DNA of 52,545 bases from a virus. The DNA is taken from IMG/VR virus record IMGVR_UViG_3300031507_000007, positions 1 to 52,545 of that record, one strand, 5' to 3'. Shown one piece after another: positions 16,379 to 52,545 of the stretch (the stretch's first letter is position 1; each line of letters starts with the position of its first letter). Below the pieces are notes generated by a model that was not told where the DNA came from, ran no database searches, and saw nothing but the letters and a program-made list of their open reading frames with translations. The translations under genes and the position numbers were made by a program.

Positions 16379-17112
16379 CCGTGGACCCGCTGTTCATCGA
16401 CCGCTACCCGGGCGATGCCAAGGGCGACGGCGCTGCGTTTTGCGCGGCCGGCCCGCCGTGGCACGGCGCCGTGTTCAAGCTCTCGCAGGGCCTGGACTAC
16501 CAATACGCGGCGTGGGCGCTCGAGCAGCGCAAGCCGTTCGTCAACAGCCCGCGCTACGGCGGCGACCTGTTCGACGGCTTCTACCACTACCTGACGATCG
16601 CGCAGGACGGCGCCGCGCAGGCGGACCGGTTCATGGGGCTGATGAAGCTGATCGGCGGCGAGCTGGTGGGCACGATGTGGGCGATGGTCGACGTCGAGCG
16701 TGGCGGGCAGCGCAAGACGCCGAACCGGCAGCAGGTCATCGACTGCGTGAGCGCGTTCGCGGCGCGCTACCGCCAGCTCTCCGGGCGCGCGCCCACGCTG
16801 TACGGCGGCGAGCTCCTGCGGGATCTCCAGGTCGGCAGCTTGATGGGGTGCGGCCGCTCCTGGGTGGCGCTGTACGGCAGCGAGCTGCACGGCGTCGGCG
16901 AGAGCACCCGGCAGTTTCTGGCGCGCACCGGGACCGACCTGGATCACCTGGCGTGGTGGCAGTACGACGCCGGCCGAGACGAGAACCAGCCGGAGCCGCG
17001 GGGCTACCCTAACGTCGTGCCCGGCTACGGCAAGTCGGACATCAGCGCGCTCACGCTGCCCGGCGGGCTGGCTAGGCTGCGCGCGACGCTTTGGGCCGAG
17101 AGCCCGAACTGA
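16375..17112 (+). CDS. Endolysin, GH25 muramidase-like
   Basis: GTG start in a GTGA overlap. AVFKLSQG, GFYHYL, AQADRF, MVDVE and WWQYD align by eye with GH25 (cellosyl-type) blocks. Confidence 0.65.
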   Translation: MTVDPLFIDRYPGDAKGDGAAFCAAGPPWHGAVFKLSQGLDYQYAAWALEQRKPFVNSPRYGGDLFDGFYHYLTIAQDGAAQADRFMGLMKLIGGELVGTMWAMVDVERGGQRKTPNRQQVIDCVSAFAARYRQLSGRAPTLYGGELLRDLQVGSLMGCGRSWVALYGSELHGVGESTRQFLARTGTDLDHLAWWQYDAGRDENQPEPRGYPNVVPGYGKSDISALTLPGGLARLRATLWAESPN

Positions 17113-17440
17113 CACTGGACCTCCTGCGAGGTCGACCAGACTTCCCCTTCCATCTGACCGAGGGGACCCGATCGGAAGCCCTCAGGTACACCCACACCTC
17201 GGTCGGGAAGTCCCCTCCGTTGTCCTGGATAGTGGTCTCGTCGGATTTGACTACGAGTCCCTTGTCGATCAGCCATCTCATCACGCGATAGAGCCTGCGC
17301 TCCGACGCAGATCCGAAGTCCTCCCGGACCTCCACGGCCCAATCGTGGAACGTCCGTCCCTCGAGTCGGTACAGGTGACGGAGACCGATCTGGCGTAGTA
17401 TGTGGGTGTCGCAGGTATTGCTGTAGACCCGAGACGCCAA
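17072..17440 (-). CDS. Winged-helix-like DNA-binding protein candidate
   Basis: 122 aa. SERRLYRVMRWLIDKGLVV. Its 3' end overlaps the convergent endolysin gene by 41 nt. Confidence 0.4.
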   Translation of the reverse strand: MASRVYSNTCDTHILRQIGLRHLYRLEGRTFHDWAVEVREDFGSASERRLYRVMRWLIDKGLVVKSDETTIQDNGGDFPTEVWVYLRASDRVPSVRWKGKSGRPRRRSSVSSGSRPKASRAA

Positions 17441-17441
17441 G

Positions 17442-17864
17442 CTACACCTCCTTGACGCGCCGCGATCGCAGCTCTTGGACCTCGCGCTCCGCGCGCGACA
17501 CCGCCTTCACCAGTCCGACGATGTCGCGCGACTGCTCCTGCACGACCAGGAGCGCGTCCTCGATCTCGGACTTCAGATACTCGATCCTGCGCGAGGTCGC
17601 CTCTTCGCTGTCTCGGCCAAGCCGCACCAGCTCGTCGCAGCGCTTCATGTGAAGATCGCGCTCGAACAGGGCATTTACCCTGAGGTCGTTCGCTTCTACA
17701 CATCCAGAGATCAATCTTTCGATCTTGTCGTTGAGTTGCGAGATCTCCCTGTCCCTATCGAGGACGACGATGGACGCCTGGTCAGCGGCAGCTTGAGCGA
17801 TGTCGGAGCGCCGCATGCTGGCTTCCAGGTTTTCGCGCAGGATGATGTGGTCCGCCGCGTTCAT
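17442..17864 (-). CDS. Coiled-coil hypothetical protein
   Basis: Internal ATG at 17864 of ORF 17442..17981, in an ATGA overlap with the upstream stop. Heptad-like sequence. Confidence 0.45.
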   Translation of the reverse strand: MNAADHIILRENLEASMRRSDIAQAAADQASIVVLDRDREISQLNDKIERLISGCVEANDLRVNALFERDLHMKRCDELVRLGRDSEEATSRRIEYLKSEIEDALLVVQEQSRDIVGLVKAVSRAEREVQELRSRRVKEV

Positions 17865-18112
17865 CTGGCGCCCCCTCTCCGCGCATTGACCTGGTACGGC
17901 GCTCGGTTCTGGATATGGGAAACGAACGTGGCCTTCGCTCGGATGCGGTCGCGGAATTCGTCGGTGCTCTCGCCGCTCCACCGGCGCAGCCCGTACAGCG
18001 CGCCGACGTTGTTGATGTTGATGGCCCGTCGCCGGGCGCGCAACAGCGCAGCGACGGCAAACAGGGTCAGGGAGATCGCCATCGCGATCGTGAAGATGTC
18101 GTCATTGGTCAT
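17861..18112 (-). CDS. Small membrane protein (N-terminal TM helix)
   Basis: ATG 18112 inside ORF 17861..18451. MTNDDIFTIAMAISLTLFAVAALL. Confidence 0.45.
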   Translation of the reverse strand: MTNDDIFTIAMAISLTLFAVAALLRARRRAININNVGALYGLRRWSGESTDEFRDRIRAKATFVSHIQNRAPYQVNARRGGAR

Positions 18113-18114
18113 GG

Positions 18115-18366
18115 TCAGTCCTGGTTCTTCTTGAGGTCGTCGTTGGATTCGGAATCCATCGCGCTCTGCACCGTCTCGTGGAATAAGTCGATCGGGATCC
18201 TGTCGATCAGGAGGATGCGGCCGACCGCGAAAGCCAGCCCGATCAGCATGGCGTTCGGCGTGGATGCTTCCTTCGAGCATCGGTCGATCACGTCGTTGGC
18301 CATGTCGAACGAGGTGCTCCGCTCGGGCGTCATCTCGGCCAGGATCGCGATCTCCTTCTCGGTCAC
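18115..18366 (-). CDS. Hypothetical protein
   Basis: 83-aa ORF with a GTG start in a GTGA overlap with the upstream stop. Confidence 0.45.
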   Translation of the reverse strand: MTEKEIAILAEMTPERSTSFDMANDVIDRCSKEASTPNAMLIGLAFAVGRILLIDRIPIDLFHETVQSAMDSESNDDLKKNQD

Positions 18367-19181
18367 GGGACCTCGACGAACAGGGCTCGATCGACGATGG
18401 CGTCGAAGTCGGGATCGGTGATGCCGAGCCGGTTCGCCGCAGCGCGCTCACTGGCCGCCCAGTTCTTGACCAGGGGGATCATCTCGCGGACCGTGGCGAT
18501 CAGCGCGAGGATCGCGGCGGGCTGCGCGGCGATGATGTGGTCGAGCGTAATTTTATTCGGCAGCCCACCGACCGTGATCCATTGGCGCATCTGATCGATC
18601 GCCGGATCCAACTTCGCCGTCCTCTCGAGGTTATCGATGAACACCCCGACCGGGATCCGACGCGGCGCCGGCGTCACCGAGACCAGGCCGAGCGGATGAT
18701 CCTCGTCGGTCGGCGTGGCGACCACGTTGGCCCCGCGATCGATCTTGTCAGCCGCGGCGTGCACTCGGGACCGGTGCTCCAGGCGAAGTCGATCGTTTAG
18801 CCGCTCTCCCTCGCGAGCGATGGCCTCCCGCAACTCCGGGGTGTCCGACGGATCGATCGCCGGGATCGCCTGGCGCCCGGCGTGGTGGGGCTTGGGGGCG
18901 GGCACGGACAGTTGCTCCGCGGCTCGGTCGGCGATGGCGTCGGCGGCGCGGCAGATCGGATCGTGCGCCAGCGCCGACCACACGCTCAGTCGCTTCGTGA
19001 CGGCCTCCCGCACCACCTGGTGCACCCGTTCCCTGTCCGGGGTCGTGGCCGCCCGACGCTTCTGCAGCTCGCGCAGCCACACCAGCCCCTGCGCAGTCCG
19101 GCCGCGCTGCGGCTGGTCCTCGAGCACGGCGATCTCCGCGGCAAGCTCGGCGTCTCCGGTCCCGCGATCTTCGATTGCCAT
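18363..19181 (-). CDS. Hypothetical protein (272 aa)
   Basis: ORF track entry with high GC3. I recognised no motif. Confidence 0.5.
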   Translation of the reverse strand: MAIEDRGTGDAELAAEIAVLEDQPQRGRTAQGLVWLRELQKRRAATTPDRERVHQVVREAVTKRLSVWSALAHDPICRAADAIADRAAEQLSVPAPKPHHAGRQAIPAIDPSDTPELREAIAREGERLNDRLRLEHRSRVHAAADKIDRGANVVATPTDEDHPLGLVSVTPAPRRIPVGVFIDNLERTAKLDPAIDQMRQWITVGGLPNKITLDHIIAAQPAAILALIATVREMIPLVKNWAASERAAANRLGITDPDFDAIVDRALFVEVP

Positions 19182-19784
19182 TTATCCCTCCACTGCAGTT
19201 TGCGGCGCCTCGAGCATCTCGAGAGCCTTGCTGATCTGTGCGGCCCTGGCGGCGGCCCCGGCGGCGGCCCCGGCGGCGGCCCTGGCGGCGGCCTCGGCGG
19301 CCCCGGCGGCGGCCCCGGCGGCGGCCCTGGCGGCGGCCTCGGCGGCCCCGGCGGCGGCCCTGGCGGCGGCCTCGGCGGCCCCGGCGGCGGCCCAGGCGGC
19401 GGCCTCGGCGGCGGCCTCGTCGGCGGCCCTGGCGGCCCTGGCGGCCTCGTCGGCGGCCCTGGCGGCCTCGGCGGCGGCCTCGGCGGGTTGACCCCGGAGC
19501 CCGGTCACGGTGGCCAGGGTGGCCTTCGCGCGCTCCTGCCAGGCCGGCTCAACGTGCCGGATGGACTGCTCGGCACACCACAGCGAAAAATCGTAGCAGA
19601 GCCACGGATCGCGCTCCCACAGCGCGTGGGTTAGTAGCCACATCTTGTCGCCGTGTGGGATGTCGAACGCGCACGCCTCGCGCGCGGTGATCTCGGGTCG
19701 ACCCATAAAGAACTTATCCAGGGCGTCACCCTGGTAGTCCTCGCAGGCGCCCCACTTCGACAGCAGATCTCGAGTGATGATCAT
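19182..19784 (-). CDS. Protein with an about 95-aa Trp/Cys-containing N-domain and an Ala-rich tandem-repeat C-terminus
   Basis: ATG 19784 in an ATGA overlap with the RHH gene stop. C-terminus: AAEAAARAAAGAAEAAARAAAGAAAGAAEAAARAAAG... Confidence 0.55.
   Translation of the reverse strand: MIITRDLLSKWGACEDYQGDALDKFFMGRPEITAREACAFDIPHGDKMWLLTHALWERDPWLCYDFSLWCAEQSIRHVEPAWQERAKATLATVTGLRGQPAEAAAEAARAADEAARAARAADEAAAEAAAWAAAGAAEAAARAAAGAAEAAARAAAGAAAGAAEAAARAAAGAAAGAAARAAQISKALEMLEAPQTAVEG
19245..19488 (-). repeat. Imperfect tandem repeats (12-nt GGCGGCGGCCYN units in 33/45-nt higher-order units) encoding the Ala-rich array
   Basis: Read directly on the plus strand. The repeats are in frame within CDS 19182..19784. 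Confidence 0.85.
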
Positions 19785-19963
19785 GCGCGCCCCGACAGCC
19801 GCTGGTATTCCAGGGCGGCGTGCTCGATGTACGCGGCCACCTTGAGCTGCGGCAGGCCACTGAGGCTGGCGATCTGCATGATGTCGGCCTGGATGCGGCG
19901 GTGCGCGGCCGGGTCGAGGCGGATGGTGATGGATACCTTCTTCGGCTTTGGCTTCTTCGGCAT
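19781..19963 (-). CDS. Ribbon-helix-helix (CopG/Arc-like) DNA-binding protein candidate, first gene of the leftward cassette
   Basis: ATG 19963 inside ORF 19781..20026. MPKKPKPKKVSITIRLDPAAHRRIQ... has an RHH-like beta strand plus helices. Confidence 0.5.
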   Translation of the reverse strand: MPKKPKPKKVSITIRLDPAAHRRIQADIMQIASLSGLPQLKVAAYIEHAALEYQRLSGRA

Positions 19964-20073
19964 TGCGGAGACTCTGGATGCATCGCGAATCGATGTCAAC
20001 AAGTTGATGCAAAATGAATCAAACACCCGATCGATACCCCAACTCCGGATCGTGTCGGCCGATAGTGGAAGGC

Positions 20074-20451
20074 ATGTCCCAATCCACGATCTTGCTGATC
20101 GAAGATGACCCCGATGTTTGCGCGGCCCACTGGCGGTTCCTGCGCCGCACCTTCCCGACGGCCACCGTCATCACCGCGGAGACCGCGTCGCGCGCCATCG
20201 CGATCCTGGCCACCGGCGGCGTCGACATGGTGGTCAGCGACTACTGGCTAGGCAGCAGCAGCGCCGGCACCGGCGGCGATGTCCTGCAGTGGATCCGGCG
20301 TAACCGCCCCGACCTGGAAGACCGCTTCGTGTTCCTCACCGGGTCACCGGCTGAGGTCCAGGATCGCGGCGCGCGGGTCATGATGAAAGGCACGCCGGCC
20401 GAACTGATGCGGAACTTCTTGACCGGCGTGATGGCCGGTACTACAACCTGA
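20074..20451 (+). CDS. Single-domain response-regulator receiver (CheY-like REC) protein
   Basis: MSQSTILLIEDD (acidic pocket), DMVVSDYWL (phospho-acceptor Asp), FLTGS and MMKGTP (Lys-Pro) all sit at canonical spacing. There is no output domain. Confidence 0.8.
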   Translation: MSQSTILLIEDDPDVCAAHWRFLRRTFPTATVITAETASRAIAILATGGVDMVVSDYWLGSSSAGTGGDVLQWIRRNRPDLEDRFVFLTGSPAEVQDRGARVMMKGTPAELMRNFLTGVMAGTTT

Positions 20452-20562
20452 TCTCGATCAGCTGGGAATAGAACGCAGGGAGAACCTGCGCACCAACTAT
20501 CTGGGCATTGAACACCCAGGTCGACAGTGTCGGGGACCCGGTCACTTTAACGTGGGTCCACG

Positions 20563-20595
20563 GAGCCGCCTTTCCCCGAGGCGGCTCTTGTTTTT
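20563..20595 (+). terminator. Intrinsic terminator candidate
   Basis: GAGCCGCC, a 9-nt loop, GGCGGCTC, then TTGTTTTT. Confidence 0.65.
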
Positions 20596-20658
20596 GGCGA
20601 GGAGCGGCGCTACAACCTCGATGGTCATCGAGGGCGGCATCTAGCTTCCTTCGTCCGG

Positions 20659-32349: not shown

Positions 32350-33590
32350 GGATCCCCATCACCGGCTCGCGCGCACACCGCGTCTGGAAGTGCCCGGCCA
32401 GCGCCGTCCTGCCCCAGGTAGACGAGGGTCCGCGCAACGAGCCCGCGCGTCGGCGCGGCAAGCAGATCCACGCGTACCTCGAGCGCGTGGCGGCCATCGG
32501 CGTGGATGCGGCGCTGGCGGAGCAGCCTGACGAGCTGTACCCGTTGCTGCGCGCGCTGGACCTCGACGAACTGCCGACCTGGCTCGCGACCGAGGTCGCC
32601 TTCGCGTGGGACTGGAAGGCGCGCACCGCGCGCGAGCTGGGGCGCAACCTCGACCGTGACTACACGGGGGTCGACTGGACGCGCGAGACCCCGGCGACGC
32701 TCGACATCGTGGGCTCGGCGATGGCGTCGCACGCCGGGCTGGTCAGCGACTACAAGAGCGGGCACTCGAAGTACCCGGCCCCGGACTACTTCGGGCAGAC
32801 GCTGCTCGGCGGGCTGTGCGCGCGCTCGGTCTACAAGCTCGAGAAGGTGGCGCTCGAGCTGATCCACATCCACGACGACGGCACGCACCACAAGGTGCGG
32901 CGCTGGGTCGGCGAGTTCGAACTCGACGCCTTCGAGGACGAGTGGGGAGCCGCAATGGAACTCGTCGACCACTGGGAGGCCGAATACGCCGCCGGACGAG
33001 GCGTCAACGTCAACGAGGGGCCGCACTGCGAGTATTGCCCCGCGTACAACCAGTGCCCCGCGAAGACGGCGCTGGTCCGCCAGCTCCCGGCCGAGCTGCG
33101 CGGGCTCGGGATCCAGGTCGGGCAGGATGAGGCCGGCGCGCCGGTGCTCCTGATCGAGCGCGGGAAGATCTCCATCCGCTCGGCGTCCGAGATGTGGATG
33201 GCGATCGAGCGCATCGAGGACGTGCTGTCCCGCGCCAAGCAGGAGATCATCGGGATCGCGGCGTTCGAGCCGATCCCGTTGCCCGACGGCCGGGTGATCG
33301 GCCGGCTACAGACCGAGCGGCGCGCGCTCGACGGGCGCATCGTCGCCGAGGTGCTGGACGCGCGCTACGGCCGCCAAGAGCGCGAGGCGACCGTGGAGCT
33401 CGAGTGCACCATGGATTCCCTGCGGCGTTGCGTGGTCCGCAACATCAAGCCGCACGAGAAGATCTCGACGAAGAAGCGGGACGGCGTCTTCGACCGCGTG
33501 CTCGAAGACATCGAGAGCAAGGGCGGCATCGTGATCAACTCGACCGACTCGATCAAGCCGCACGTCCCGAAGCGCCTGAAGTCGGGCTAG
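32346..33590 (+). CDS. PD-(D/E)xK exonuclease with a Cas4/AddB-type Cys cluster, partner of RecT
   Basis: GTG start in a GTGA overlap. WKCPAS, LVSDYKSG, QTLLGG and CEYCPAYNQC fit a four-Cys arrangement. About 165 aa of C-terminal extension. Confidence 0.7.
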   Translation: MRIPITGSRAHRVWKCPASAVLPQVDEGPRNEPARRRGKQIHAYLERVAAIGVDAALAEQPDELYPLLRALDLDELPTWLATEVAFAWDWKARTARELGRNLDRDYTGVDWTRETPATLDIVGSAMASHAGLVSDYKSGHSKYPAPDYFGQTLLGGLCARSVYKLEKVALELIHIHDDGTHHKVRRWVGEFELDAFEDEWGAAMELVDHWEAEYAAGRGVNVNEGPHCEYCPAYNQCPAKTALVRQLPAELRGLGIQVGQDEAGAPVLLIERGKISIRSASEMWMAIERIEDVLSRAKQEIIGIAAFEPIPLPDGRVIGRLQTERRALDGRIVAEVLDARYGRQEREATVELECTMDSLRRCVVRNIKPHEKISTKKRDGVFDRVLEDIESKGGIVINSTDSIKPHVPKRLKSG

Positions 33591-33904
33591 AACTCGGCGC
33601 CCGGGGTACCGATAACCACCGAGGTCTGATCGGGCGGCGTCGGGACGAATGCCTCCATCGTATCGGAGTGCGGCGTCGACCCGGCCGGCTGAGCCGTGAC
33701 GGTGACCGAGACGTTGCCGGCCGTCGGGGCCAGCGCGGTCAAGATGATCGAGCGGGCGTCTGCCGGGTCGACCACGGCGCCGACTTGGGATTGGTTCGCC
33801 GATGCCACGCTGGCGACGGCGGCCGAATCGACCTGGCCTAGCGAGTTGCGTACGACGAACGGGACGCGGCGGGACTTGCCGAACGTGATGGATGAAATCT
33901 GCAT
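33587..33904 (-). CDS. Stand-alone Ig-like (Big-type) domain protein candidate
   Basis: 105 aa with a beta-strand pattern: VVRNSLGQVDSAAVASVASANQSQVGAVVDPADARSIILTALAPTAGNVSVTVTA. Confidence 0.4.
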   Translation of the reverse strand: MQISSITFGKSRRVPFVVRNSLGQVDSAAVASVASANQSQVGAVVDPADARSIILTALAPTAGNVSVTVTAQPAGSTPHSDTMEAFVPTPPDQTSVVIGTPGAEF

Positions 33905-33943
33905 GGACCGGTGTTGCCCGATCCGCCCCCGCGCTGTCTGCAG

Positions 33944-34102
33944 CTATTTGCTGCCTACGACAAACGCCGTGTCCAGCTCTTCGATCACTAGTCGGTCAAG
34001 GTCGGAGATAGTCGGAGCAGGAACGCAGTAGATCAGCCAGCCTCCACCGTCGGCGACCGGCTCCAGCCAGCGGAGGTAGCCCTCGAAGAGGGTGGGCGGC
34101 AT
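33944..34102 (-). CDS. Hypothetical protein (52 aa)
   Basis: ATG 34102 inside ORF 33944..34387. MPPTLFEGYLRWLEPVADGGGWLIYC... Confidence 0.3.
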   Translation of the reverse strand: MPPTLFEGYLRWLEPVADGGGWLIYCVPAPTISDLDRLVIEELDTAFVVGSK

Positions 34103-34106
34103 GGCG

Positions 34107-34319
34107 TCACCCTGCCTTCGTGCGCGTGTATCCGGTGCCGCCGCACGCGGTGCAGTTGCGATCGGGCAGCGTGCCGTATGCCGCCGGCTCGCGGCACTCG
34201 CACTCGCCTGGCGACAGCGTGAACGGCGCGCATTCCTCGGTGAATCCGCCGTCTGGATCGGCATGATGCCATTCACCGTTGTTGCACCGTCGATGGATGC
34301 ATCCTCGTTCGCGCCCCAC
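34107..34319 (-). CDS. Cys-rich zinc-finger protein (70 aa) with a DnaJ-type CxxCxGxG motif
   Basis: GTG 34319, 4 nt after the upstream stop. CIHRRC...CECREP...CTACGGTG. Confidence 0.4.
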   Translation of the reverse strand: MGRERGCIHRRCNNGEWHHADPDGGFTEECAPFTLSPGECECREPAAYGTLPDRNCTACGGTGYTRTKAG

Positions 34320-34323
34320 CGGC

Positions 34324-34635
34324 CTACCCCTTCCCCTGGTCCGCCGTGCGGCGGGCGATGTCGGGCAGTGCCCCGACGTGGTGGCAACGCTGGTAGTCCT
34401 CATCGTCGCAGTCGTGCTCGCGATCGACTGCTCGGGCGCGGTGCTGTCGAATGATATCAAGCTCCTCCATGGTCAGCGTCCGCTCCGCGGCGAACGAGGC
34501 GAGGACGATCTCCATCTTGTCGATGATTCCGATCTCCAGATCGGTCGGCTGCAGGTTGGCCCGACGAGGCCCATCGAAGTGACTCCTGATGGCGCGCGCC
34601 TCGTCCTCGGTGATCTGAATAATCCTGATGTCCAT
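34324..34635 (-). CDS. Hypothetical acidic protein
   Basis: ATG 34635 inside ORF 34324..34656. Confidence 0.4.
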   Translation of the reverse strand: MDIRIIQITEDEARAIRSHFDGPRRANLQPTDLEIGIIDKMEIVLASFAAERTLTMEELDIIRQHRARAVDREHDCDDEDYQRCHHVGALPDIARRTADQGKG

Positions 34636-34639
34636 CGGA

Positions 34640-34894
34640 CTACTCGCTCCCTTCACGGCGGGCGTGGGCGATGAGCCTGGCGAACTCGCTGCGGATTCGG
34701 TCCTTGCTATCGTAGGGCGTCGTCTCAGAAAACAGAATGATTGACGCGTCGTTGACGATGCCCTTGCCGGCGCTGCCGCCCATCCACTGCTCGCGCCAGT
34801 GATCTCGCACGTACTCGCGAATCTGCTCGTCCGTCACCGGCTCCTGCCAGCCCTCCGGCGGACTCGCCGGGCCGTCGTTCTTCGTTGTTGTCAT
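34640..34894 (-). CDS. Hypothetical protein (84 aa)
   Basis: ATG 34894 inside ORF 34640..35038. The rest of that ORF is antisense to the tRNA. Confidence 0.45.
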   Translation of the reverse strand: MTTTKNDGPASPPEGWQEPVTDEQIREYVRDHWREQWMGGSAGKGIVNDASIILFSETTPYDSKDRIRSEFARLIAHARREGSE

Positions 34895-34909
34895 GGTCAA
34901 TCCTGGTTT

Positions 34910-34928
34910 GAGGTGTCGAAACTTGTGG
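34910..34928 (-). promoter_or_regulatory. Conserved upstream element, copy 1 (plus-strand GAGGTG-N4-AACTTGTGG)
   Basis: Plus strand reads gaggtgtcgaaacttgtgg. It lies 15 nt upstream of ATG 34894 on the coding (minus) strand. Confidence 0.5.
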
Positions 34929-34942
34929 CAGATCTCGTAGGG

Positions 34943-35014
34943 TGCACCGAGCAGGATTCGAACCTGCATCCGCCAGGTAGAAGCTGGCCGCTCTATCCAT
35001 TGAACTATCGGTGC
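34943..35014 (-). tRNA. tRNA-Arg (anticodon UCU)
   Basis: Folded manually. Acceptor GCACCGA/TCGGTGC, D arm GTTC/GAGC with a GG loop, anticodon arm GCCAG-CTTCTAC-CTGGC, T arm GCAGG-TTCGAAT-CCTGC, discriminator A. CCA is not encoded. Confidence 0.85.
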
Positions 35015-35048
35015 GTGGCGCAGAGGCCGGTGTAGCACGTTTCCGGTG

Positions 35049-35246
35049 TCAGAGGCCAGCTGCGATCGGAGGGCAGCATCCGCCCTCGGACACGCACCAC
35101 TGGCCCGCGCGCGTCTTGCGCTCGATCGTCACGCCGCCGCGCCGGCACAGCCAGACACGCTCCGTCCTGCGGTCGATCTTGAGGTCGCAGCAAGCCCCGG
35201 TCGAGAGGGTTCGCAGGTTGCGGAGCTCGGAGGGGGTGTAGCTCAC
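35049..35246 (-). CDS. Cys-containing hypothetical protein (65 aa)
   Basis: ORF track entry with a GTG start in a GTGA overlap. Confidence 0.4.
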   Translation of the reverse strand: MSYTPSELRNLRTLSTGACCDLKIDRRTERVWLCRRGGVTIERKTRAGQWCVSEGGCCPPIAAGL

Positions 35247-35425
35247 TTGACCTCGATGTTGGTGATCTCGACGCCCATCGCTCCTTCGAGCGCGGCGGAT
35301 TGGATGGATCCAGAGTCTAGCGCTCGACGAATGGCCTCAAATGCAGCGGAAAGGTCTCCGGTGCACGTGATCTCGATGCTGATCAGGTGCTCTTTGCGTG
35401 AGCGCTTGCGAGTAATGCGGGGCAT
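35243..35425 (-). CDS. Hypothetical protein (60 aa)
   Basis: ATG 35425 preceded by GGAGAA. Lies inside ORF 35243..35503. Confidence 0.45.
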   Translation of the reverse strand: MPRITRKRSRKEHLISIEITCTGDLSAAFEAIRRALDSGSIQSAALEGAMGVEITNIEVK

Positions 35426-35439
35426 GGGATTCTCCAGTA

Positions 35440-35459
35440 GAGGTGGGTGAACTTGTGGG
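35440..35459 (-). promoter_or_regulatory. Conserved upstream element, copy 2
   Basis: Plus strand reads gaggtgggtgaacttgtggg. It lies 14 nt upstream of ATG 35425. Confidence 0.5.
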
Positions 35460-35526
35460 CCTGGCTCATCAGTGCAGGTAGGCCGTGGCCTGCAGACCGG
35501 CAATGCCGGTTTCGCCTATGGGGTGT

Positions 35527-35745
35527 CTAGATTGGAACCCCGTCGAACATGTCGGACGGCAGGCTCGACCGGGTGATGCCGAGGTCACGGGCGCGATCGA
35601 GCAGCGAGGAATCGTCCAGCGAACCGGCGATGTCGCCTTCCATGTCCGCGGCACGGTACGCCGGCAGCGATGGCAGGCGACTGACAGCTGCGGTGCAGAG
35701 CGCGATCTTGATCTGGTAACGCTGGTATTTGTCCAGCGTCGGCAT
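35527..35745 (-). CDS. Hypothetical protein (72 aa)
   Basis: ATG 35745 shares 1 nt with the upstream TGA. Confidence 0.4.
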   Translation of the reverse strand: MPTLDKYQRYQIKIALCTAAVSRLPSLPAYRAADMEGDIAGSLDDSSLLDRARDLGITRSSLPSDMFDGVPI

Positions 35746-35981
35746 CACGGCTGCATCCCCAGGACGCGGAGGTCGCGCGGCCCCTCGCCTGCGGCCACCT
35801 CGCTCACAGCCGCCTCGATCCACTGCCGGTCACTGGCCCCGGCTGGTAGATGTGCCGGCCGAGGCCGCACGCCGAACACGCGGTCAGAGAGTCGCCAGGC
35901 CAGGCGGCACTGGCCCCCATCGAAGTAGAATCTAACCGTGGTGCCATCGCTCAATAGTGCTCGATACATAGTCGCATTCAT
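35745..35981 (-). CDS. Hypothetical protein (78 aa)
   Basis: ATG 35981 inside ORF 35745..36038. Confidence 0.45.
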   Translation of the reverse strand: MNATMYRALLSDGTTVRFYFDGGQCRLAWRLSDRVFGVRPRPAHLPAGASDRQWIEAAVSEVAAGEGPRDLRVLGMQP

Positions 35982-35994
35982 GTGGTTGTCCTTT

Positions 35995-36014
35995 GAGGTG
36001 CGTGAACTTGTGGG
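35995..36014 (-). promoter_or_regulatory. Conserved upstream element, copy 3
   Basis: Plus strand reads gaggtgcgtgaacttgtggg. It lies 13 nt upstream of ATG 35981. Confidence 0.5.
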
Positions 36015-36077
36015 ACACTTTGTCCGGCCAGCGGGCACCGCGAGGGTGCACGCTCGACGGGCACAGCGGCCCCAGCG

Positions 36078-36749
36078 CTACTCGGATTGGCGCTCCTCGA
36101 CCCACGCCAGCGACGCCTCGTCGGGCTCCTCGTAGGTCACCTCGGTAAGGCCCTGCTCCCCTGTGTCCATGCGCTGGGCCCACGTGTCCGTGTGGCGGCG
36201 CGCTCCGCAGTGACAGCAGACCTCGTCGATCGTGACGCCGCCGCCGTGGCCCCATACGCCTGGGTTATCGCCGATCCCGCCGACCAGCTCGATGGGCGAG
36301 CGCCAGTCGTGCTCATGCCCGGCGGCGCAGTCGGGCGCCTGGGGCGCGATGGTGACCGTGTGCTTGTCGTGCTGGGTGCCGTCGATACTGGAGACCCAGA
36401 CGTCGATGTAGATCGTTCCGTGGTCGGTGTCCCAGTCGGCTGAGCGGACGTCGACATCGATGCGGGCGTCCAGCTCGGACGGACGGCAGGTGATCGTGGT
36501 CTCCTCGCCGCCCTCGTAGCGGAGGGTGTACTCTCGCGGCTCGTCGCTCTTGCGCAGTGCCAAGCGGGCGGCGACGACAGCGTCATCGGCCGCGCGCGTG
36601 GCGAGGCTCGACGCGCACGAGCACTTGAGATCGTGGTCTGCATCGCAGGTCACGTCTTCCACCCACGCGTGCTCGGCGGTGGCGGCGGTGGCGATCGCAT
36701 CGGCAAGGGCGTAGGAGAATGGGGCATCTGGACGGATATAGGCGGTCAT
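36078..36749 (-). CDS. Hypothetical protein (223 aa) with His/Cys motifs
   Basis: ORF track entry. HEHDW...NPGVWGHGGGV...CCHCG. Confidence 0.5.
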   Translation of the reverse strand: MTAYIRPDAPFSYALADAIATAATAEHAWVEDVTCDADHDLKCSCASSLATRAADDAVVAARLALRKSDEPREYTLRYEGGEETTITCRPSELDARIDVDVRSADWDTDHGTIYIDVWVSSIDGTQHDKHTVTIAPQAPDCAAGHEHDWRSPIELVGGIGDNPGVWGHGGGVTIDEVCCHCGARRHTDTWAQRMDTGEQGLTEVTYEEPDEASLAWVEERQSE

Positions 36750-36764
36750 GGTCAGAGTCCTTTC

Positions 36765-36783
36765 GAGGTGCGGTAACTTGTTG
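36765..36783 (-). promoter_or_regulatory. Conserved upstream element, copy 4
   Basis: Plus strand reads gaggtgcggtaacttgttg. It lies 15 nt upstream of start 36749, within a 43-nt intergenic gap. Confidence 0.5.
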
Positions 36784-36792
36784 AGATGTGTA

Positions 36793-36999
36793 CTAGGCGA
36801 CTACGTGGAGGGCAGCGCCAACGTGGTAGTCTGGGTGAGCCTGCATGGCGCGCAGCGCCGCGGTGGTCGCCTCTGACCGGCGCCACGCCGCGTCGAGCAG
36901 ATGAGGCGATGGGTAGTCCGGCAGCGAGTCGACGAGCTTGACCTCGTCGCGCAGCGCCCGGCGGTAGACGCGGCGGAGGTCGGATAGGGAGGCGGACAT
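36793..36999 (-). CDS. Hypothetical protein (68 aa)
   Basis: ATG 36999 inside ORF 36793..37125. Confidence 0.4.
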   Translation of the reverse strand: MSASLSDLRRVYRRALRDEVKLVDSLPDYPSPHLLDAAWRRSEATTAALRAMQAHPDYHVGAALHVVA

Positions 37000-37001
37000 G
37001 G

Positions 37002-37415
37002 CTACTTGCCCTCCTGTGCGAGGCACACCGCGTTGAACTGCGGGCGCAGCGCGGCGTCCTCGCAGTCGGTCGAGCCGTCGGGTAGCGCGGCCTCGACGCA
37101 GGCATCGACCACAGCCTGCTCGCACGCCTCGACGGCCTTGGCAACCTTGGCCTTGGCCTTGGCGACCCGAGCGTTGGCGCGGGCCAGGGCGAGCGCCTGC
37201 TTGGCAGCGGCGACCTCGTCGTCGGGCAGCTCGGCGCCGCAGATGGCGCGGGCCTCGGTGAGGGACACCCCGCCGACCGGGCCGGTTCGCTCGTGGATGC
37301 AGCCGCGCATCCAGGCGCCGTCCGTCTTGCGAGCGTGGGGCTTGCGGTGCGAGCCGGCATCAGCGGCCGACGTGGTGGCGAGGAGCAGGGCGAGAGCGGC
37401 GATCAGGTTGCGCAT
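37002..37415 (-). CDS. Secreted Cys-containing protein (signal peptide)
   Basis: MRNLIAALALLLATTSAADA signal-like N-terminus. 137 aa. Confidence 0.5.
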   Translation of the reverse strand: MRNLIAALALLLATTSAADAGSHRKPHARKTDGAWMRGCIHERTGPVGGVSLTEARAICGAELPDDEVAAAKQALALARANARVAKAKAKVAKAVEACEQAVVDACVEAALPDGSTDCEDAALRPQFNAVCLAQEGK

Positions 37416-37438
37416 GGTCGGGTTCCTTCGGGGTTGGT
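37413..37438 (-). repeat. 26-nt start-codon-plus-leader block, copy 1 (identical to 38355..38380)
   Basis: catggtcgggttccttcggggttggt, read at both loci. Confidence 0.85.
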
Positions 37439-37502
37439 GGGACGGGATGTCCGGCGAGGGTCGAGGCGAACTCGGCCGCCGACGGGCACACAGGCCCTGG
37501 TG

Positions 37503-38003
37503 CTACAGGCGGACCGCGTCGGCCTCTCTGGGGCAAGCGGCCTGGAAGGCCCGACCCGTGGAGCGGCGGATGTCCGCGTCGCGGTATCGGGCCGACACCA
37601 GCTCGTAGGCGTCGGTGCCGTGCTGCAGGATCCCGGCGGCCACCGCGTCTTGGCGGGCCAGCCACAGCATAGAGGCGCATGCCGACCATGCCTCCACGGA
37701 GCGAGGCCGGCGCGCGTAGCCGGCGTATGCCGCCATGGCGATGGACAGAGCGCGATGCGCGGCAGCGGCAGGCGACTCGACCACGAGCCGGGTCACCAGT
37801 TTGCCGCACTGGTCGCGGACGGCGGTGCCGTGCCAGAGCCCGGGCGCCTCGGCATGCTGCGCCTGGATTGCGGCGCGGACGGCCGCATCGGGTGCGGTGT
37901 CCTCGGGGTCCGTGGGGTCGACTGCGCCGGAACAGTAGCAGTGCACGATGGTGCGGCCGGAGGTCATGCGGATGAGGTACTCGCTGATGGTCTTGGTGGT
38001 CAT
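37503..38003 (-). CDS. Hypothetical protein (166 aa)
   Basis: ORF track entry with high GC3. Confidence 0.45.
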   Translation of the reverse strand: MTTKTISEYLIRMTSGRTIVHCYCSGAVDPTDPEDTAPDAAVRAAIQAQHAEAPGLWHGTAVRDQCGKLVTRLVVESPAAAAHRALSIAMAAYAGYARRPRSVEAWSACASMLWLARQDAVAAGILQHGTDAYELVSARYRDADIRRSTGRAFQAACPREADAVRL

Positions 38004-38012
38004 GGTCGTGTC

Positions 38013-38183
38013 CTATCGGGTGGTGGGTTGGTAGGTGGCCAGGATGAGCGCGGAATCGCGCAAGGAGCAGCGCCACCAGCCGTCCTGGAAGCGGTCCATG
38101 TCGAGGATGGCCTCGACCAAGTCGGCCTGGGTGTCGCAGTCCACGGTGACGGTGAGCGGGGCGAGTCGGTGGTAGTGCAGCAT
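38013..38183 (-). CDS. Hypothetical protein (56 aa)
   Basis: Read manually: MLHYHRLAPLTVTVDCDTQADLVEAILDMDRFQDGWWRCSLRDSALILATYQPTTR. Preferred over the Pro/Arg-rich ORF 38000..38224. Confidence 0.35.
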   Translation of the reverse strand: MLHYHRLAPLTVTVDCDTQADLVEAILDMDRFQDGWWRCSLRDSALILATYQPTTR

Positions 38184-38204
38184 GGCGATCTCCTGAGTCG
38201 GGGG

Positions 38205-38357
38205 TTACAGGGACAGGGCTGCAAGGCGAGCCGCGTTGCGAGCGCGGCGGACCGCGTCCTCGTCCGACCAGCGGGCCAAGAGAGCGGCCTGGGCCTCCAT
38301 GACCTGGAAGGCGGACATCGAGGCGAATCGGCTGGTCGGGGCGAGGGTGGTCGGCAT
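38205..38357 (-). CDS. Hypothetical protein (50 aa), first gene of the leftward early cluster
   Basis: ATG 38357 inside ORF 38205..38474, preceded by GAAGGAAC. Confidence 0.4.
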   Translation of the reverse strand: MPTTLAPTSRFASMSAFQVMEAQAALLARWSDEDAVRRARNAARLAALSL

Positions 38358-38380
38358 GGTCGGGTTCCTTCGGGGTTGGT
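38355..38380 (-). repeat. 26-nt start-codon-plus-leader block, copy 2
   Basis: Identical to 37413..37438. Confidence 0.85.
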
Positions 38381-38515
38381 CTAGCCGGCGATTTTCGACC
38401 GGCGAGAATTCTCTCTGCGGGATCCGGGCCAAAATTTTCATACCGCGATGCGATGGGGTATACTCCAGTATCACAGCTAGTTGAACTTCGGGATACTCGG
38501 CTGGATCGCGCGCGA

Positions 38516-38550
38516 CCGTGAATTTTCTGCCACACCAGCCGTGAATTTTC
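38516..38550. repeat. Two perfect 12-nt direct repeats CCGTGAATTTTC (period 23 nt)
   Basis: Read at 38516..38527 and 38539..38550. Confidence 0.85.
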
Positions 38551-38557
38551 GGCTCAT

Positions 38558-38599
38558 GGGTGAAAATCTACCCGGGTGATCCTGGGTGATTTCCTACCC
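38558..38599. repeat. Two 16-nt imperfect direct repeats GGGTGA-N4-CTACCC, with a third GGGTGA between them
   Basis: gggtgaaaatctaccc at 38558..38573 and gggtgatttcctaccc at 38584..38599. The extra GGGTGA is at 38574..38579. Confidence 0.8.
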
Positions 38600-39253
38600 G
38601 CATCGCACGCGATCCCCCGTACCCCCAGGATCGCGCCTATGCGCCCGTGGGCGCGGGCGTCTTGCACTGCCTGCCCGCGGGCGGCCGCGCATGTGTGTGC
38701 GTGAGCGCGATCTATAGAGCTGGCCCGTGTTCGGTAAACGGGGGTGCTTGGCTGGAGTTACTGTCTGGTCAGCGACGGTAATGCGCGAGCTCGAGCGTGT
38801 TCGGCATCGATCGCGTGAGTGCTCTCTCGCGCGCGAATACGTGAGCGCGCGTACACATGCGCGCGCGTTTAATGTGGGGCGGGGGGAGAGACAGCTGAAG
38901 CGTTTTTTCCCCAGCAAACTGTATTCTGGACCACAGGAAGCTCCTCCGATCGGACAGACCTGTCTGATCTGTCCAAAAAGCGGCCTAGAATGGCCCAGGA
39001 CGTTTCCGGGGTACCTAGGTGGCGCCCTACCGGATTGAACGCGCTACAGCGCAAGCCATTGCGGTTTTCTGGCCAACTGTGGACCTCGGATCCTGGTCAG
39101 GTGGAGGTCTGCGGTCATCCGTTCAGAAAATGATAGGCTATCACTTACCACATTTTTTTTCTCCTCTCTCCTTCTTATCCATCCCCCTTTCAGGGGATGG
39201 AATAAGAGGAGATCTATAAGGCAAGCATGTAACTATAGTGCCAACGTGTGAAC

Positions 39254-39324
39254 TTGTTGTAAGTGCCCCCGGTAAAAAACGCCTTGTTGCACCTTGTAGA
39301 TTGATTAGAAATTGTTTACAACAA
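39254..39324. promoter_or_regulatory. Operator-like CTTGT(T/A)G half-sites, including the 9-bp inverted repeat TTGTTGTAA / TTACAACAA, upstream of the XRE gene
   Basis: TTGTTGTAA at 39254..39262 and TTACAACAA at 39316..39324. Extra CTTGTTG at 39283..39289 and CTTGTAG at 39293..39299. Confidence 0.45.
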
Positions 39325-39365
39325 CGTCCCGATAGTTATCCCACTCTAGTCATTGAGGTTACAGC

Positions 39366-39962
39366 ATGTCATCACAGGGCAAGTGCGATTTCGCCGTCAT
39401 GGCCAGGTCGCTGCGCATCCTTCACCGGAAGAAGCAACGCGAGGTTGCGGCGGCCATCGGTATCCAGCCGTCGACCTACGGCAACCTCGAATCGTCTTCA
39501 TTTAAGATCGTCCGCCGGGAGCGAGTCGACGACCTCTCGCGGCTATACAAACTGGACGCAGCGCAGCATTCCGCGCTGGTCGCCGCCTGGGAGGCCGCGC
39601 CGATCAGCGACTACAGCAAGAAGCAGCGCGACGGCTGGGCCAAGCGCAACGAGGCCAGGTCCAAGGGCCGCCGCCTCGACATGGTTCAGACCGCGCTCTG
39701 CGATCTCCTCGACGCGATCGCGAGCTCGGCGGCGGCCGGCGAGCCGTGTCCGTCGGCCTGCTCGTGCGTCGCGCCGGATGCGTTCGTCGACGAGCCCGGC
39801 CGGACGTGCGAGCTGTGCTCCGCGTTCCACGCGCTCGGCTTCCCCGACGGCTTCGTCTCGCCCGACGTGGCCGCTCAGCGGATCGCCGACATCTCGCCGG
39901 TCGCGCTCAACGAGCGCCCGGTCGTTCCGAACACGCCGCACGTTCCGAAGGCGGGATCGTGA
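39366..39962 (+). CDS. XRE-family (Cro/CI-type) HTH regulator with a Cys-containing C-terminal domain
   Basis: GAGG lies 7 nt upstream of the ATG. LRILHRKKQREVAAAIGIQPSTYGNLES is an HTH segment. Confidence 0.65.
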   Translation: MSSQGKCDFAVMARSLRILHRKKQREVAAAIGIQPSTYGNLESSSFKIVRRERVDDLSRLYKLDAAQHSALVAAWEAAPISDYSKKQRDGWAKRNEARSKGRRLDMVQTALCDLLDAIASSAAAGEPCPSACSCVAPDAFVDEPGRTCELCSAFHALGFPDGFVSPDVAAQRIADISPVALNERPVVPNTPHVPKAGS

Positions 39963-47190: not shown

Positions 47191-48584
47191 CGCGACACGC
47201 AACGGTCGAGGATCTATGGGCGATGCCGAGACTCCAGGTCGGAGCGCCCATGTTGTCGGCGAACCCCATCCCGGATCGTCATGGCGGTGCGATCCGCTCG
47301 TTCGGATGCCGCGGCGACGACGAGATTATCGCGGAGCGCGGCGCGCGCGGTATCGAGATCTTGTCCGACATCGAGATCCATGGCCGCGGGTCGCCGCACA
47401 GCGAACTCAAGGCCGGCGGCGGCGAGGACACGAACGCGCACCGGCTCGAGGTCATCCAGGCCGTTCGCGACGGCAAGCACCTAGAGCTGATGGTCAAGCG
47501 CGCGCGGACCTACCGCCAGAGCAAGGGCAGCAAGAATCGGCGCTACCTGCGGTTCGCCGCGGACGAACTCGACGCGGTAGCCCCGAGCTTCGCCGGTCAG
47601 CCGCTGCTGGTCGACCACAACACGTACGAGCAGGACAAGCGCAAGGGCACGATCCTCACCTCGGCGTCCGAGACCAACGGCCAGGGCATCACGTCGTTTT
47701 TCATGGGATTTGCGGTCGTGAAGCCCGACGCCGTGATCTCGGTGCTCGACGGCACCATCGACCGGTTCTCGATCGGCTGGTTCCCCGGCGCCGAGATCCT
47801 CTGCACGGCTCACGGGTGCAACATCATGGGCAAGGACTCCTGCTACTGCTGGCCCGGCGAAGAGGTCGAGGTTGACGGGAAGCTCAAGATCGCCGAATAC
47901 GAATTCAAAGGCGCCACTGGTAAGGAACTTTCTGCTGTCAACGTCCCCGCGGTAACCGGGACCCGAATCGAAGACTACCGCGCGGCACTGGCGGCCGAGT
48001 TGCAACTACCACCGACGAGAACCAAGGAGCGAACGAAGATGCTATTCACCCGACTTGCGGCGGCCCTCGGGCTCGCCGCGCTGAGCGAAGCCGGCCACGA
48101 GGATGCCGCGCTCGCCGCACTCGAGGGGCAGCGCAAGCGCCTTCTCGCCGCGGAGGTCGACGTGGGTACGCTCCGCGTCGACGTCGCCCGCCTCACCACC
48201 GAGCGCGACACCGCGCGCGCCGAGGCGAACCTCGCCGCCGGCGCCGCGATCGATCGCGTGGTCGCCGACGCCTACTCCGAGGGCAAGCTCGGCTACGGCC
48301 GCGATGCCGCCGGCGCGGCGCTCGCCGACCCGATGGAGTCGCTCCTGCGCGACTTCGGCAAGGCGGCCGGGCTCGATGCCCTGTCCGCCAAGCTCAAGGC
48401 GATGGCGCCGCGGATCCCGGTGGGCCAGCGCCAGCCGCTGCCGGCCGAGCCCGCGCGCCAGCTCGCCGCGGTCCCTACCGATGCCCAGATCGCAGCCACC
48501 GCGCTGCAGCTCGGCGTTCCGGTCGACTCCGTCCGCGCGCGCTACGGGCTCGCCCCGCTGGCGCAGGCTGGGGGTGCCCGTTGA
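47187..48584 (+). CDS. Prohead protease fused to a scaffold-like coiled-coil C-terminus
   Basis: FSIGW...ELSAVNVPAV is a protease-like ending. An Ala/Leu/Arg coiled coil follows. ATGA overlap at its start. Confidence 0.65.
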   Translation: MTRHATVEDLWAMPRLQVGAPMLSANPIPDRHGGAIRSFGCRGDDEIIAERGARGIEILSDIEIHGRGSPHSELKAGGGEDTNAHRLEVIQAVRDGKHLELMVKRARTYRQSKGSKNRRYLRFAADELDAVAPSFAGQPLLVDHNTYEQDKRKGTILTSASETNGQGITSFFMGFAVVKPDAVISVLDGTIDRFSIGWFPGAEILCTAHGCNIMGKDSCYCWPGEEVEVDGKLKIAEYEFKGATGKELSAVNVPAVTGTRIEDYRAALAAELQLPPTRTKERTKMLFTRLAAALGLAALSEAGHEDAALAALEGQRKRLLAAEVDVGTLRVDVARLTTERDTARAEANLAAGAAIDRVVADAYSEGKLGYGRDAAGAALADPMESLLRDFGKAAGLDALSAKLKAMAPRIPVGQRQPLPAEPARQLAAVPTDAQIAATALQLGVPVDSVRARYGLAPLAQAGGAR

Positions 48585-52399: not shown

Positions 52400-52545
52400 A
52401 TGCCCGCCCCCACCCACATCATGGTAACCGCGGCGCCAGGCCGCCGCCCGCCGATCCACAACGACGACGGCCGAGATCTTGGAGGCGGTCTGTTGTACGC
52501 CGACGACGCCACCGTGATCCGGGTGAGGTACTCGCAGGCGATCCG
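52400..52545 (+). CDS. N-terminal part of the junction-spanning small tail-module protein (continues at 128..254)
   Basis: ATG 52400 follows the upstream stop (TGAATG). It is in frame with ORF 3..254 through the duplicated 127 nt. Confidence 0.5.
   Translation, partial: MPAPTHIMVTAAPGRRPPIHNDDGRDLGGGLLYADDATVIRVRYSQAI
52419..52545. repeat. Terminal overlap copy 2, identical to 1..127
   Basis: Compared base by base. Confidence 0.9.

Follow-up and report, generated by a model that had tools for sequence, protein, structure and literature searches.

We describe a 19-base box that stands in four copies ahead of early genes of an uncultured virus, the IMG/VR record IMGVR_UViG_3300031507_000007, analysed here over its whole length of 52,545 bases (hereafter the window). 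Read on the gene-sense (minus) strand, the box is CC-ACAAGTT-N4-CACCTC, with CA instead of CC at the start of the fourth copy. Comparison with related phages indicates a functional and clade-specific control or boundary element, that is, a strand-specific cis box at the 5' boundary of ORFan cassettes that would be expressed separately. We favour the reading that it is a compact phage-specific promoter which at the same time bounds the cassettes, in a role like that of the promoter-early/stem-loop cassettes (PeSLs) of T4-type phages, and we give this reading a probability of about 0.4. A first-pass annotation of the same DNA had left three readings side by side: a site for a phage regulator, a compact promoter, or an element of mRNA processing or translation. 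Their common core, a functional and orientation-dependent cis element tied to the starts of selected early genes, is supported by our results, which do not decide among the three.

Copies and placement of the box

The first-pass annotation had listed four copies of a rigid ACAAGTT-N4-CACCTC element. Scanning the whole window for the plus-strand form, GAGGTG-N4-AACTTGT, recovered exactly these four without a mismatch, at positions 34910, 35440, 35995 and 36765. They all lie within 1.9 kb, they are all co-oriented with the minus-strand genes that follow them, and the expectation that a full scan would find the element restricted to intergenic sites was borne out for 4/4 perfect copies. Allowing up to two mismatches brought the total to five against 0.25 expected, the added match being at 46076 within a gene, and none of 100 shuffles reached five matches. 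When the 5' CC was included and up to three mismatches were allowed, there were seven matches against 0.64 expected, the three extra ones being weak and unrelated. The 7-mer ACAAGTT on its own occurs eight times in the window, six of them in intergenic DNA (0.7 expected; intergenic DNA makes up 8.7% of the sequence). A chance origin of the four copies is excluded, because they are all perfect, intergenic and co-oriented and because the shuffles never match them.

Copy 1 (34910..34928, minus strand; CCACAAGTT-TCGA-CACCTC) lies 12 nucleotides (nt) past a tRNA-Arg and ends 15 nt before the ATG of an 84-residue gene. Copy 2 (35440..35458, minus strand; CCACAAGTT-CACC-CACCTC), whose 5' CCAC overlaps the 3' tail of a hammerhead ribozyme candidate, is 14 nt from the ATG of a 60-residue gene. 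Copy 3 (35995..36013, minus strand; CCACAAGTT-CACG-CACCTC) abuts the 3' end of a structured hairpin and is 13 nt from the ATG of a 78-residue gene. Copy 4 (36765..36783, minus strand; CAACAAGTT-ACCG-CACCTC) is 15 nt from the ATG of a 223-residue gene; it begins 11 nt past the stop codon of a 68-residue gene, in a gap that is indeed only 43 nt long (36750-36792), as noted at first pass. The first bases of the four ATG codons are at 34894, 35425, 35981 and 36749, and the same four genes (84, 60, 78 and 223 residues) are called in ENA for the source contig (k141_2303219, ERZ27251791). In the window a ribosome-binding site (RBS), AGGA or GGAG, lies between box and ATG. The distance of 13-15 nt to the start codon described at first pass holds in the window and extends to 13-20 nt when relatives are included: the spacing is close, not rigid.

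The box shows no dyad symmetry, no RNA fold is predicted at it (folding z-scores of -0.9 to +1.0), and the Rfam 15 covariance models gave no family over it at E-values up to 10. No bases are conserved upstream of the CC. ACAAGTT is the sole A+T-rich patch in the box-bearing gaps, which have 68% G+C. An antisense reading, in which the plus-strand GAGGTG would serve as an RBS 7 nt from a TTG start, was rejected: the frames run for 5-75 codons and nothing in them is conserved.

Conservation in related phages

The early regions of relatives (designated by L numbers) were fetched from homologues of the PD-(D/E)XK nuclease, of the XRE-type protein and of a 137-residue early protein. Identity of the nuclease to that of the window is 98% in L077, 97% in L078, 87% in L079 and 67% in L082. 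The metagenomic phages L077/L078, L079 and L216 carry four box copies each, in the same block. Taken together, the window, L077, L079 and L216 hold 16 copies, 14 of them distinct, in which 15 positions are invariant or nearly so: CC, ACAAGTT and CACCTC depart from the pattern only by one A at position -1 and one CACCTA. Over the same 14 distinct copies, the four spacer bases, the eight bases upstream, the bases downstream and the RBS are variable. For example, one orthologous copy has the spacer TTCT in L077 and CACG in L079 and L216, within identical flanks. The RBS lies 1-8 nt from the box in all 16 copies.

Further out, all that is left of the box at this position in L082 is N-ACCTC, with a degenerate A/T-rich stretch and a CCCATCRACG block ahead of it, and the box is absent from L080, L081, L221 and the IMG/VR relatives L085-L091. 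Exact-pattern scans of IMG/VR with CCACAAGTT-N4-CACCTC and with CCCATCRACG-N17-ACCTC gave single, chance-level matches on unrelated contigs. The comparison indicates that the box is real, selected and specific to one shallow clade, because it is kept in L077/L078, L079 and L216 amid variable spacers, flanks and genes and is absent at greater distance. The two-block layout of L082 was tried as a -35/-10 pair and rejected, since the first of the two blocks belongs, as its 5' portion, to a family-wide GCCCRUCGR hairpin element described below.

Relatives that lack the box have, at the corresponding place, C/A-rich and G-poor leaders with CAYCAC-like strings. L080 has its own repeated start contexts (15500-20600): its leaders are rich in C and A and poor in G, and one of them, CCCATCTTTCAACCTACTCACACCACAGGACAGGATACAGACCATG, is present two times. 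In an unrelated soil contig (L076, 400-2950), CACGATCATG is found ahead of six genes.

A cassette bounded by two copies

A cassette of 536 nt (35459..35994, minus strand), with the 78-residue gene, a 72-residue gene and the hammerhead candidate, is absent from L077, L079 and L216. When the block of the window was compared by blastn with L077 and L079, two segments aligned to one single copy of the box: 36082..35996, which comprises copy 3 and the DNA ahead of it, and 35459..35417, which comprises copy 2 and the DNA that follows it. Since both junctions map onto the relatives' single copy, the alignments identify the 536-nt block as an insertion or deletion bounded exactly by copies 3 and 2. 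In L077 and L079 a single 68-residue gene is flanked by two box copies.

The genes that follow the box largely differ between relatives: they are hypervariable ORFans, absent or replaced in close relatives. None of the four downstream genes of the window, nor their neighbours in the block, has a match in Pfam or PHROGs. The 84-residue gene (34640..34894, minus strand) has homologues at 68% in L079 and 42% in L216, and the 60-residue gene (35243..35425, minus strand) has homologues about 50% identical in L077 and L216. No counterpart of the 78-residue gene (35745..35981, minus strand), of the 72-residue gene or of the 223-residue gene (36078..36749, minus strand) was found in any fetched relative. 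The last of these shares only its first ~12 residues with the same-position genes of L077 and L079; homologues of its C-terminal part are on unrelated soil contigs (L001, L075 and L076), where no box accompanies them.

An insertion or deletion bounded by two copies could also be expected if the boxes were non-functional relics, leftovers of a duplicated leader kept alike by recombination and gene conversion. Conversion is suggested by the orthologous copy that shares its spacer with another copy. We nevertheless consider a relic very unlikely. Fifteen positions are fixed across 14 contexts while the inner 4-nt spacer and both flanks vary, and conversion tracts would be expected to homogenise the spacer too. 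Moreover, L082 retains ACCTC at the same position after far greater divergence.

A putative compact promoter

In the promoter reading that we favour, the A+T-rich CCACAAGTT block would act as a -10-like element for melting and recognition. Transcription would start in or just past CACCTC, possibly at the conserved A 6 nt after ACAAGTT, and would give leaders of 15-25 nt that hold little beyond the RBS. With no -35 or TATAAT-type signal present, recognition would have to come from a phage factor or from a non-canonical sigma of the host. The 19-bp repeats would also provide short homology for recombination, since the same 19 bp recur every 500-800 bp, and cassettes would be gained or lost in this way. 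Seen directly are the copies, their restriction to intergenic sense-strand sites, their invariance and the insertion or deletion; promoter activity, start point and recognising factor are inferred.

Several observations argue for a promoter. The copies are placed after modules that end or cut the upstream RNA (tRNA, hammerhead candidate and hairpin), and the box itself shows neither dyad symmetry nor an RNA fold. The A+T-rich ACAAGTT in a G+C-rich gap is suggestive, as is a geometry that would permit a purine start 6 nt later. By analogy, the ORFan cargo downstream and the insertion or deletion bounded by two copies resemble what is seen for the PeSLs of T4-type phages.

Other observations weigh against this reading. 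A sigma-70 consensus scan of 33500-39500 found nothing at the four sites, and no -35 element, TG extension or TATAAT-like hexamer was found at the box. Among the phage proteins, we found no RNA polymerase or recognisable sigma factor. The putative early promoter region ahead of the first early gene is conserved, looks A+T-rich and differs from the box. The two copies around the one 68-residue gene of L077 and L079 are redundant if both are promoters. The RBS always lies 1-8 nt from the box, which is not required of a promoter. Finally, read-through transcription is probably the rule, because boxless relatives carry equivalent genes behind the same structured hairpins.

RNA modules next to the box

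Copies 1-3 trail a tRNA, a hammerhead candidate or a conserved structured hairpin by 0-12 nt. The tRNA-Arg(TCT) directly upstream of copy 1 (34941..35014, minus strand) is also found in L079, and L077 has a decayed remnant of it. Directly upstream of copy 2, and downstream of the 72-residue gene, lies a candidate type II hammerhead ribozyme (35455..35517, minus strand). It matches RF02276 over the full length of the model (1-66/66) at 33.2 bits, below the gathering threshold of 37, with E-values of 8e-5 in a local search and 0.0057 over the whole window. The core is in place (CGAAAC, GUC and CUGAUGA). Both stem III and stem I are closed; stem II, a 3-bp GCC/GGC, is of the open type. The two hairpins reported before copy 2 at first pass are real, and they are stems III and I of this candidate. 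The cut is predicted after GUC, between 35495 and 35494. The 3' tail AGGCC is complementary to GGCCU in loop I and could form a 5-bp pseudoknot with it, and a pseudoknot of loop I with the 3' tail is typical of type II hammerheads (PMC3088659). No further hammerhead was found in the window or in the fetched relatives; the sole candidate lies in the window-specific cassette.

The element directly upstream of copy 3 (36010..36073, minus strand) is a long hairpin of the form GCCCGUCGR ... GGAC, and the window has a second instance of it (37437-37498, minus strand). Its pattern, cAGGGCC..GU-GCCCRUCGR-variable hairpin-..GGAC.., recurs between genes throughout the phage family, with a variable hairpin enclosed by invariant GCCC-R-UCG and GGAC/GAC boxes and often with CCAC/ACCA behind it. 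In 20 instances the long irregular hairpin is 81.8% paired, versus 31-48% with slid partners, and 12 pairs have changed on both sides. The covariation score is 0.387 versus 0.175 when shuffled, and none of 500 shuffles reached 0.387. A covariance model found 33 instances in 321 kb of related loci, of which 31 are outside the window (in L077, L079, L216, L080, L082, L083, L086, L087, L091 and L221). They lie on the strand of the small early genes, which is minus in nuclease-oriented loci and plus in L216 and L221. The element has no match in Rfam; possible identities are a site for an RNase, a hairpin that binds a protein, a minihelix resembling a tRNA, or a ribozyme-like motif of a new type. 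Both the hammerhead candidate and the structured hairpin are findings independent of the box.

These neighbours also bear on a different reading, in which the box would act in RNA. A long leftward RNA would be cut by tRNA-processing enzymes, by the hammerhead and possibly at the structured hairpins. ACAAGUU-N4-CACCUC would then be at the 5' side of the released mRNAs, read by an RNA-binding protein or nuclease, and a phage or host factor would set translation or stability, akin to a RegA-type operator or an RNase site. The potential cutting modules 0-12 nt upstream are consistent with this, as is the lack of structure in the box. The distance of 1-8 nt to the RBS places every one of the 16 copies inside the 30S footprint, CACCUC is identical to part of the 3' end of 16S rRNA, and the leaders of the boxless relatives have their C/A-rich, G-poor, CAYCAC-like strings in the same place. 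There is also a precedent: for hammerheads beside genes of prophages, a role in cutting long transcripts down to gene-length mRNAs has been proposed (PMC3088659). We regard an RNA-level leader box as possible without being probable, since the reading comes with no identified factor or mechanism, the distances to RBS and ATG vary, CCU in the box could pair with AGG of the RBS over only 3 bp, and the same data would fit recognition as DNA.

A more elaborate form of this scheme, which we find rather unlikely, takes the box as an RNA address label in a system that processes mRNA by modules. The module that cuts would be exchangeable from cassette to cassette (the tRNA, the hammerhead or the GCCCRUCGR...GGAC hairpin, which might be a new motif for processing or one akin to a ribozyme). 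Behind it would come an unvarying leader box with the 16S rRNA 3'-end hexamer, through which a phage factor would turn the translation of the freed single-gene mRNAs on or off.

Two RNA pairings or likenesses of the box were set aside. Masking of the RBS by CACCUC reaches at most 3 bp and was rejected as a stable structure. Copy 4 resembles the 3' region of 16S rRNA (AACAAG..ACCG..CACCUC, compared with the E. coli sequence); the spacers of the other copies differ, and the likeness is taken as coincidence.

The immunity region and regulator sites

One of the suggestions made at first pass was a single regulator acting on every early transcription unit, with further core matches at three other places. 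This is not supported. The box heads only four of about 14 genes in the leftward block, which is probably the early operon. Within 38360-39365 there is no box, and relatives do not keep the partial matches of this region. AACTTGT is present at 39251 and reads AGATTGT or AGCTTCT in relatives; it overlaps TTGTTGTAA, which with TTACAACAA forms a different, perfect inverted pair (39254-39262 and 39316-39324, 53 nt apart). AACTTCG at 38484, proposed as a partial core, is likewise present and is not conserved even in L077 and L079, where all four boxes are kept. ACAAGTT at 19999 belongs to a separate palindrome, TCAAC-AA-GTTGA, in a divergent promoter region; the palindrome is conserved in L077, which is uninformative because the flanks there are nearly identical. 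Because these three matches are either not conserved or part of other elements, they are no evidence for a single genome-wide regulator.

Other signals are conserved near the XRE gene. The palindrome TGATAGGCTATCA (39131-39143) has related forms in relatives, and the arms of a long hairpin (39167-39212) differ among relatives yet stay complementary. Together with the TTGTTGTAA/TTACAACAA pair, they are likely to be what truly serves the immunity region as operators and regulatory RNA. A conserved hairpin (38384-38404, minus strand) with a CGAAAAU-type loop and compensating stem changes, as compared at aligned positions in L077, L079 and L082, lies in the leader of the first early gene. Ahead of it lie a conserved GAAAAWTYTGG stretch and a GTGATAC..GTATAC motif, a region that is likely the early promoter and operator.

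The candidate regulators have two domains. The XRE-type protein (39366-39962, plus strand) has a helix-turn-helix (HTH) and a C-terminal domain with invariant C132, C134, C148 and C151 after a long helix. Its AlphaFold2 model (predicted local distance difference test, pLDDT, 81) matches only generic XRE HTH folds in the PDB; the protein has no PDB match by sequence and no structural match to the cluster A repressor. The genomes with the motif encode a 194-residue tandem-HTH protein; of the loci that lack the motif, L091 alone has it (46% identity). Its AlphaFold2 model, built on one sequence, reached a pLDDT of 52, too low for use. An 82-residue LexA-like protein is a further DNA-binding candidate.

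Such proteins could in principle bind the box as DNA. A phage repressor or regulator on this asymmetric bipartite site, with its two blocks centred ~10.5 bp apart on one helix face, would block or modulate a passing RNA polymerase in an orientation-dependent manner, as stoperators do. The box shares with the stoperators of Cluster A mycobacteriophages (PMC9283540) its asymmetry, its place in short intergenic gaps and its single orientation relative to transcription, and a monomer with two DNA-binding domains would suit the bipartite layout. We judge this unlikely on three counts. Stoperators have the same sequence as the operator of the early promoter, whereas the expected primary operator regions are without the box here and relatives keep the TGATAGGCTATCA palindrome and the TTGTTGTAA/TTACAACAA pair in them. 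Stoperators number more than 20 sites genome-wide, against four within 1.9 kb, in one 2-kb stretch. Their repressor combines an N-terminal HTH with a stoperator domain, whereas the folds that the XRE model fits are generic HTH ones, and the cluster A repressor is not among them.

Two further observations concern this region. A second repeated leader, ACCAACCCCGAAGGAACCCGACCATG, is identical at 38355-38380 and 37413-37438 (minus strand), where it precedes the first early gene (50 residues) and the 137-residue gene, and many starts in the block share GACCATG. Contigs of several relatives, from different samples (L212-L215 and the ends of L077 and L079), all stop in the ~1-kb gap between the early left operon and XRE, 325-510 nt upstream of XRE; these common stops may mark a physical genome end, or a repeat or hairpin that breaks assembly.

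Comparison with known start-associated boxes

In genomic role, the nearest parallels to the box are PeSLs and, in Cluster K mycobacteriophages, the start-associated sequences (SAS/ESAS). PeSLs (Arbiol et al. 2010, PMC2839356; PMC4122927) are short repeated intergenic units between a stop codon and the RBS of the next gene, mostly ahead of ORFans in a hypervariable region and often beside a stem-loop. Recombination between their copies gives insertions and deletions among close relatives, and the box has this feature as well. However, PeSLs match the sigma-70 consensus, with -35, -10 and an A+T-rich upstream region, which the box does not. Promoter and terminator activity has been demonstrated for PeSLs, whereas promoter activity of the box is putative. 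PeSLs are accompanied by G/C stem-loops; the neighbours of the box are a tRNA, a ribozyme candidate and an irregular hairpin.

SAS (Pope et al. 2011, PMC3203893) and the box are both asymmetric repeats of ~13-19 bp in one orientation, restricted to the non-structural part of the genome. Both stand a short way ahead of the start in some of the genes and are conserved across relatives before different gene families. SAS differ in lying 3-7 bp from the start codon and in containing the AGGAG RBS, whereas the box is 13-20 nt away with a separate, variable RBS, and in numbering 11-19 copies per genome against four.

RNase III sites in the T7 early region define cistron boundaries. The RNA modules that adjoin the box (tRNA, hammerhead candidate and hairpin) recall such boundaries, whether made by RNases or by ribozymes. 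The box itself has neither structure nor an Rfam match, and is a neighbour of these modules rather than one of them (ribozyme boundaries: PMC3088659).

The box is thus a repeated, strand-specific box at the heads of phage early genes that belongs to no named family, because it lacks the sigma-70 consensus, its RBS is separate and three features of stoperators are missing. Boxes of this general kind are known from T4-type phages (PeSLs) and from mycobacteriophages (SAS and stoperators), and most known ones besides PeSLs and stoperators lack a mechanism. The present phages form a natural comparison set of four genomes with the box, one with half a box and many without, and the gain or loss of a cassette, with one copy exactly at each end, is documented among them. 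A tRNA, a hammerhead candidate and a covariation-supported hairpin in equivalent intergenic slots make an unusual neighbourhood. If the box is a promoter, it would define a class of non-canonical promoters in a system of host and phage that is unstudied; should it act in RNA instead, ribozyme-based mRNA processing would be linked to translational control. Either way it can be used to annotate the transcription units of this phage family and the boundaries of its cargo genes.

The phage genome and its setting

The window has 67.7% G+C, and its last 127 bases (52419-52545) exactly repeat the first 127 (1-127). Because of this exact terminal overlap, it is a complete phage genome, either assembled as a circle or terminally redundant. 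Its genes include those for a portal and head of Mu-like type and a set for a contractile tail. It also encodes DnaB, ThyX and a primase-like protein, together with a RecT-like protein, the PD-(D/E)XK nuclease, RusA and the XRE-type regulator. We describe it as a ~52-kb, Mu-head/myovirus-like, uncultured soil phage of high G+C. Among INPHARED phages, megablast and blastn found no close relative, and the tape-measure protein has only remote matches.

The nuclease belongs to a large family of homologues on metagenomic contigs of 44-54 kb. Two of these are binned, one in a Gemmatimonadaceae and one in a Chloroflexota metagenome-assembled genome (MAG). A scan of GTDB genomes with the terminase gave no match and one with the nuclease profile gave the two MAG-binned contigs only, so that a host in the Gemmatimonadaceae or the Chloroflexota is hinted at and uncertain.

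ARAGORN also reports an odd tRNA with a 4-base anticodon (48152-48244, minus strand); it lies inside a coding region, has no Rfam support and is probably a false positive. Elsewhere in the window, dense imperfect GGCGGCCCTGGCGGC-type repeats at 19240-19480, within a minus-strand gene (19182-19784), yield a low-complexity, repetitive protein of 200 residues with no assigned function.

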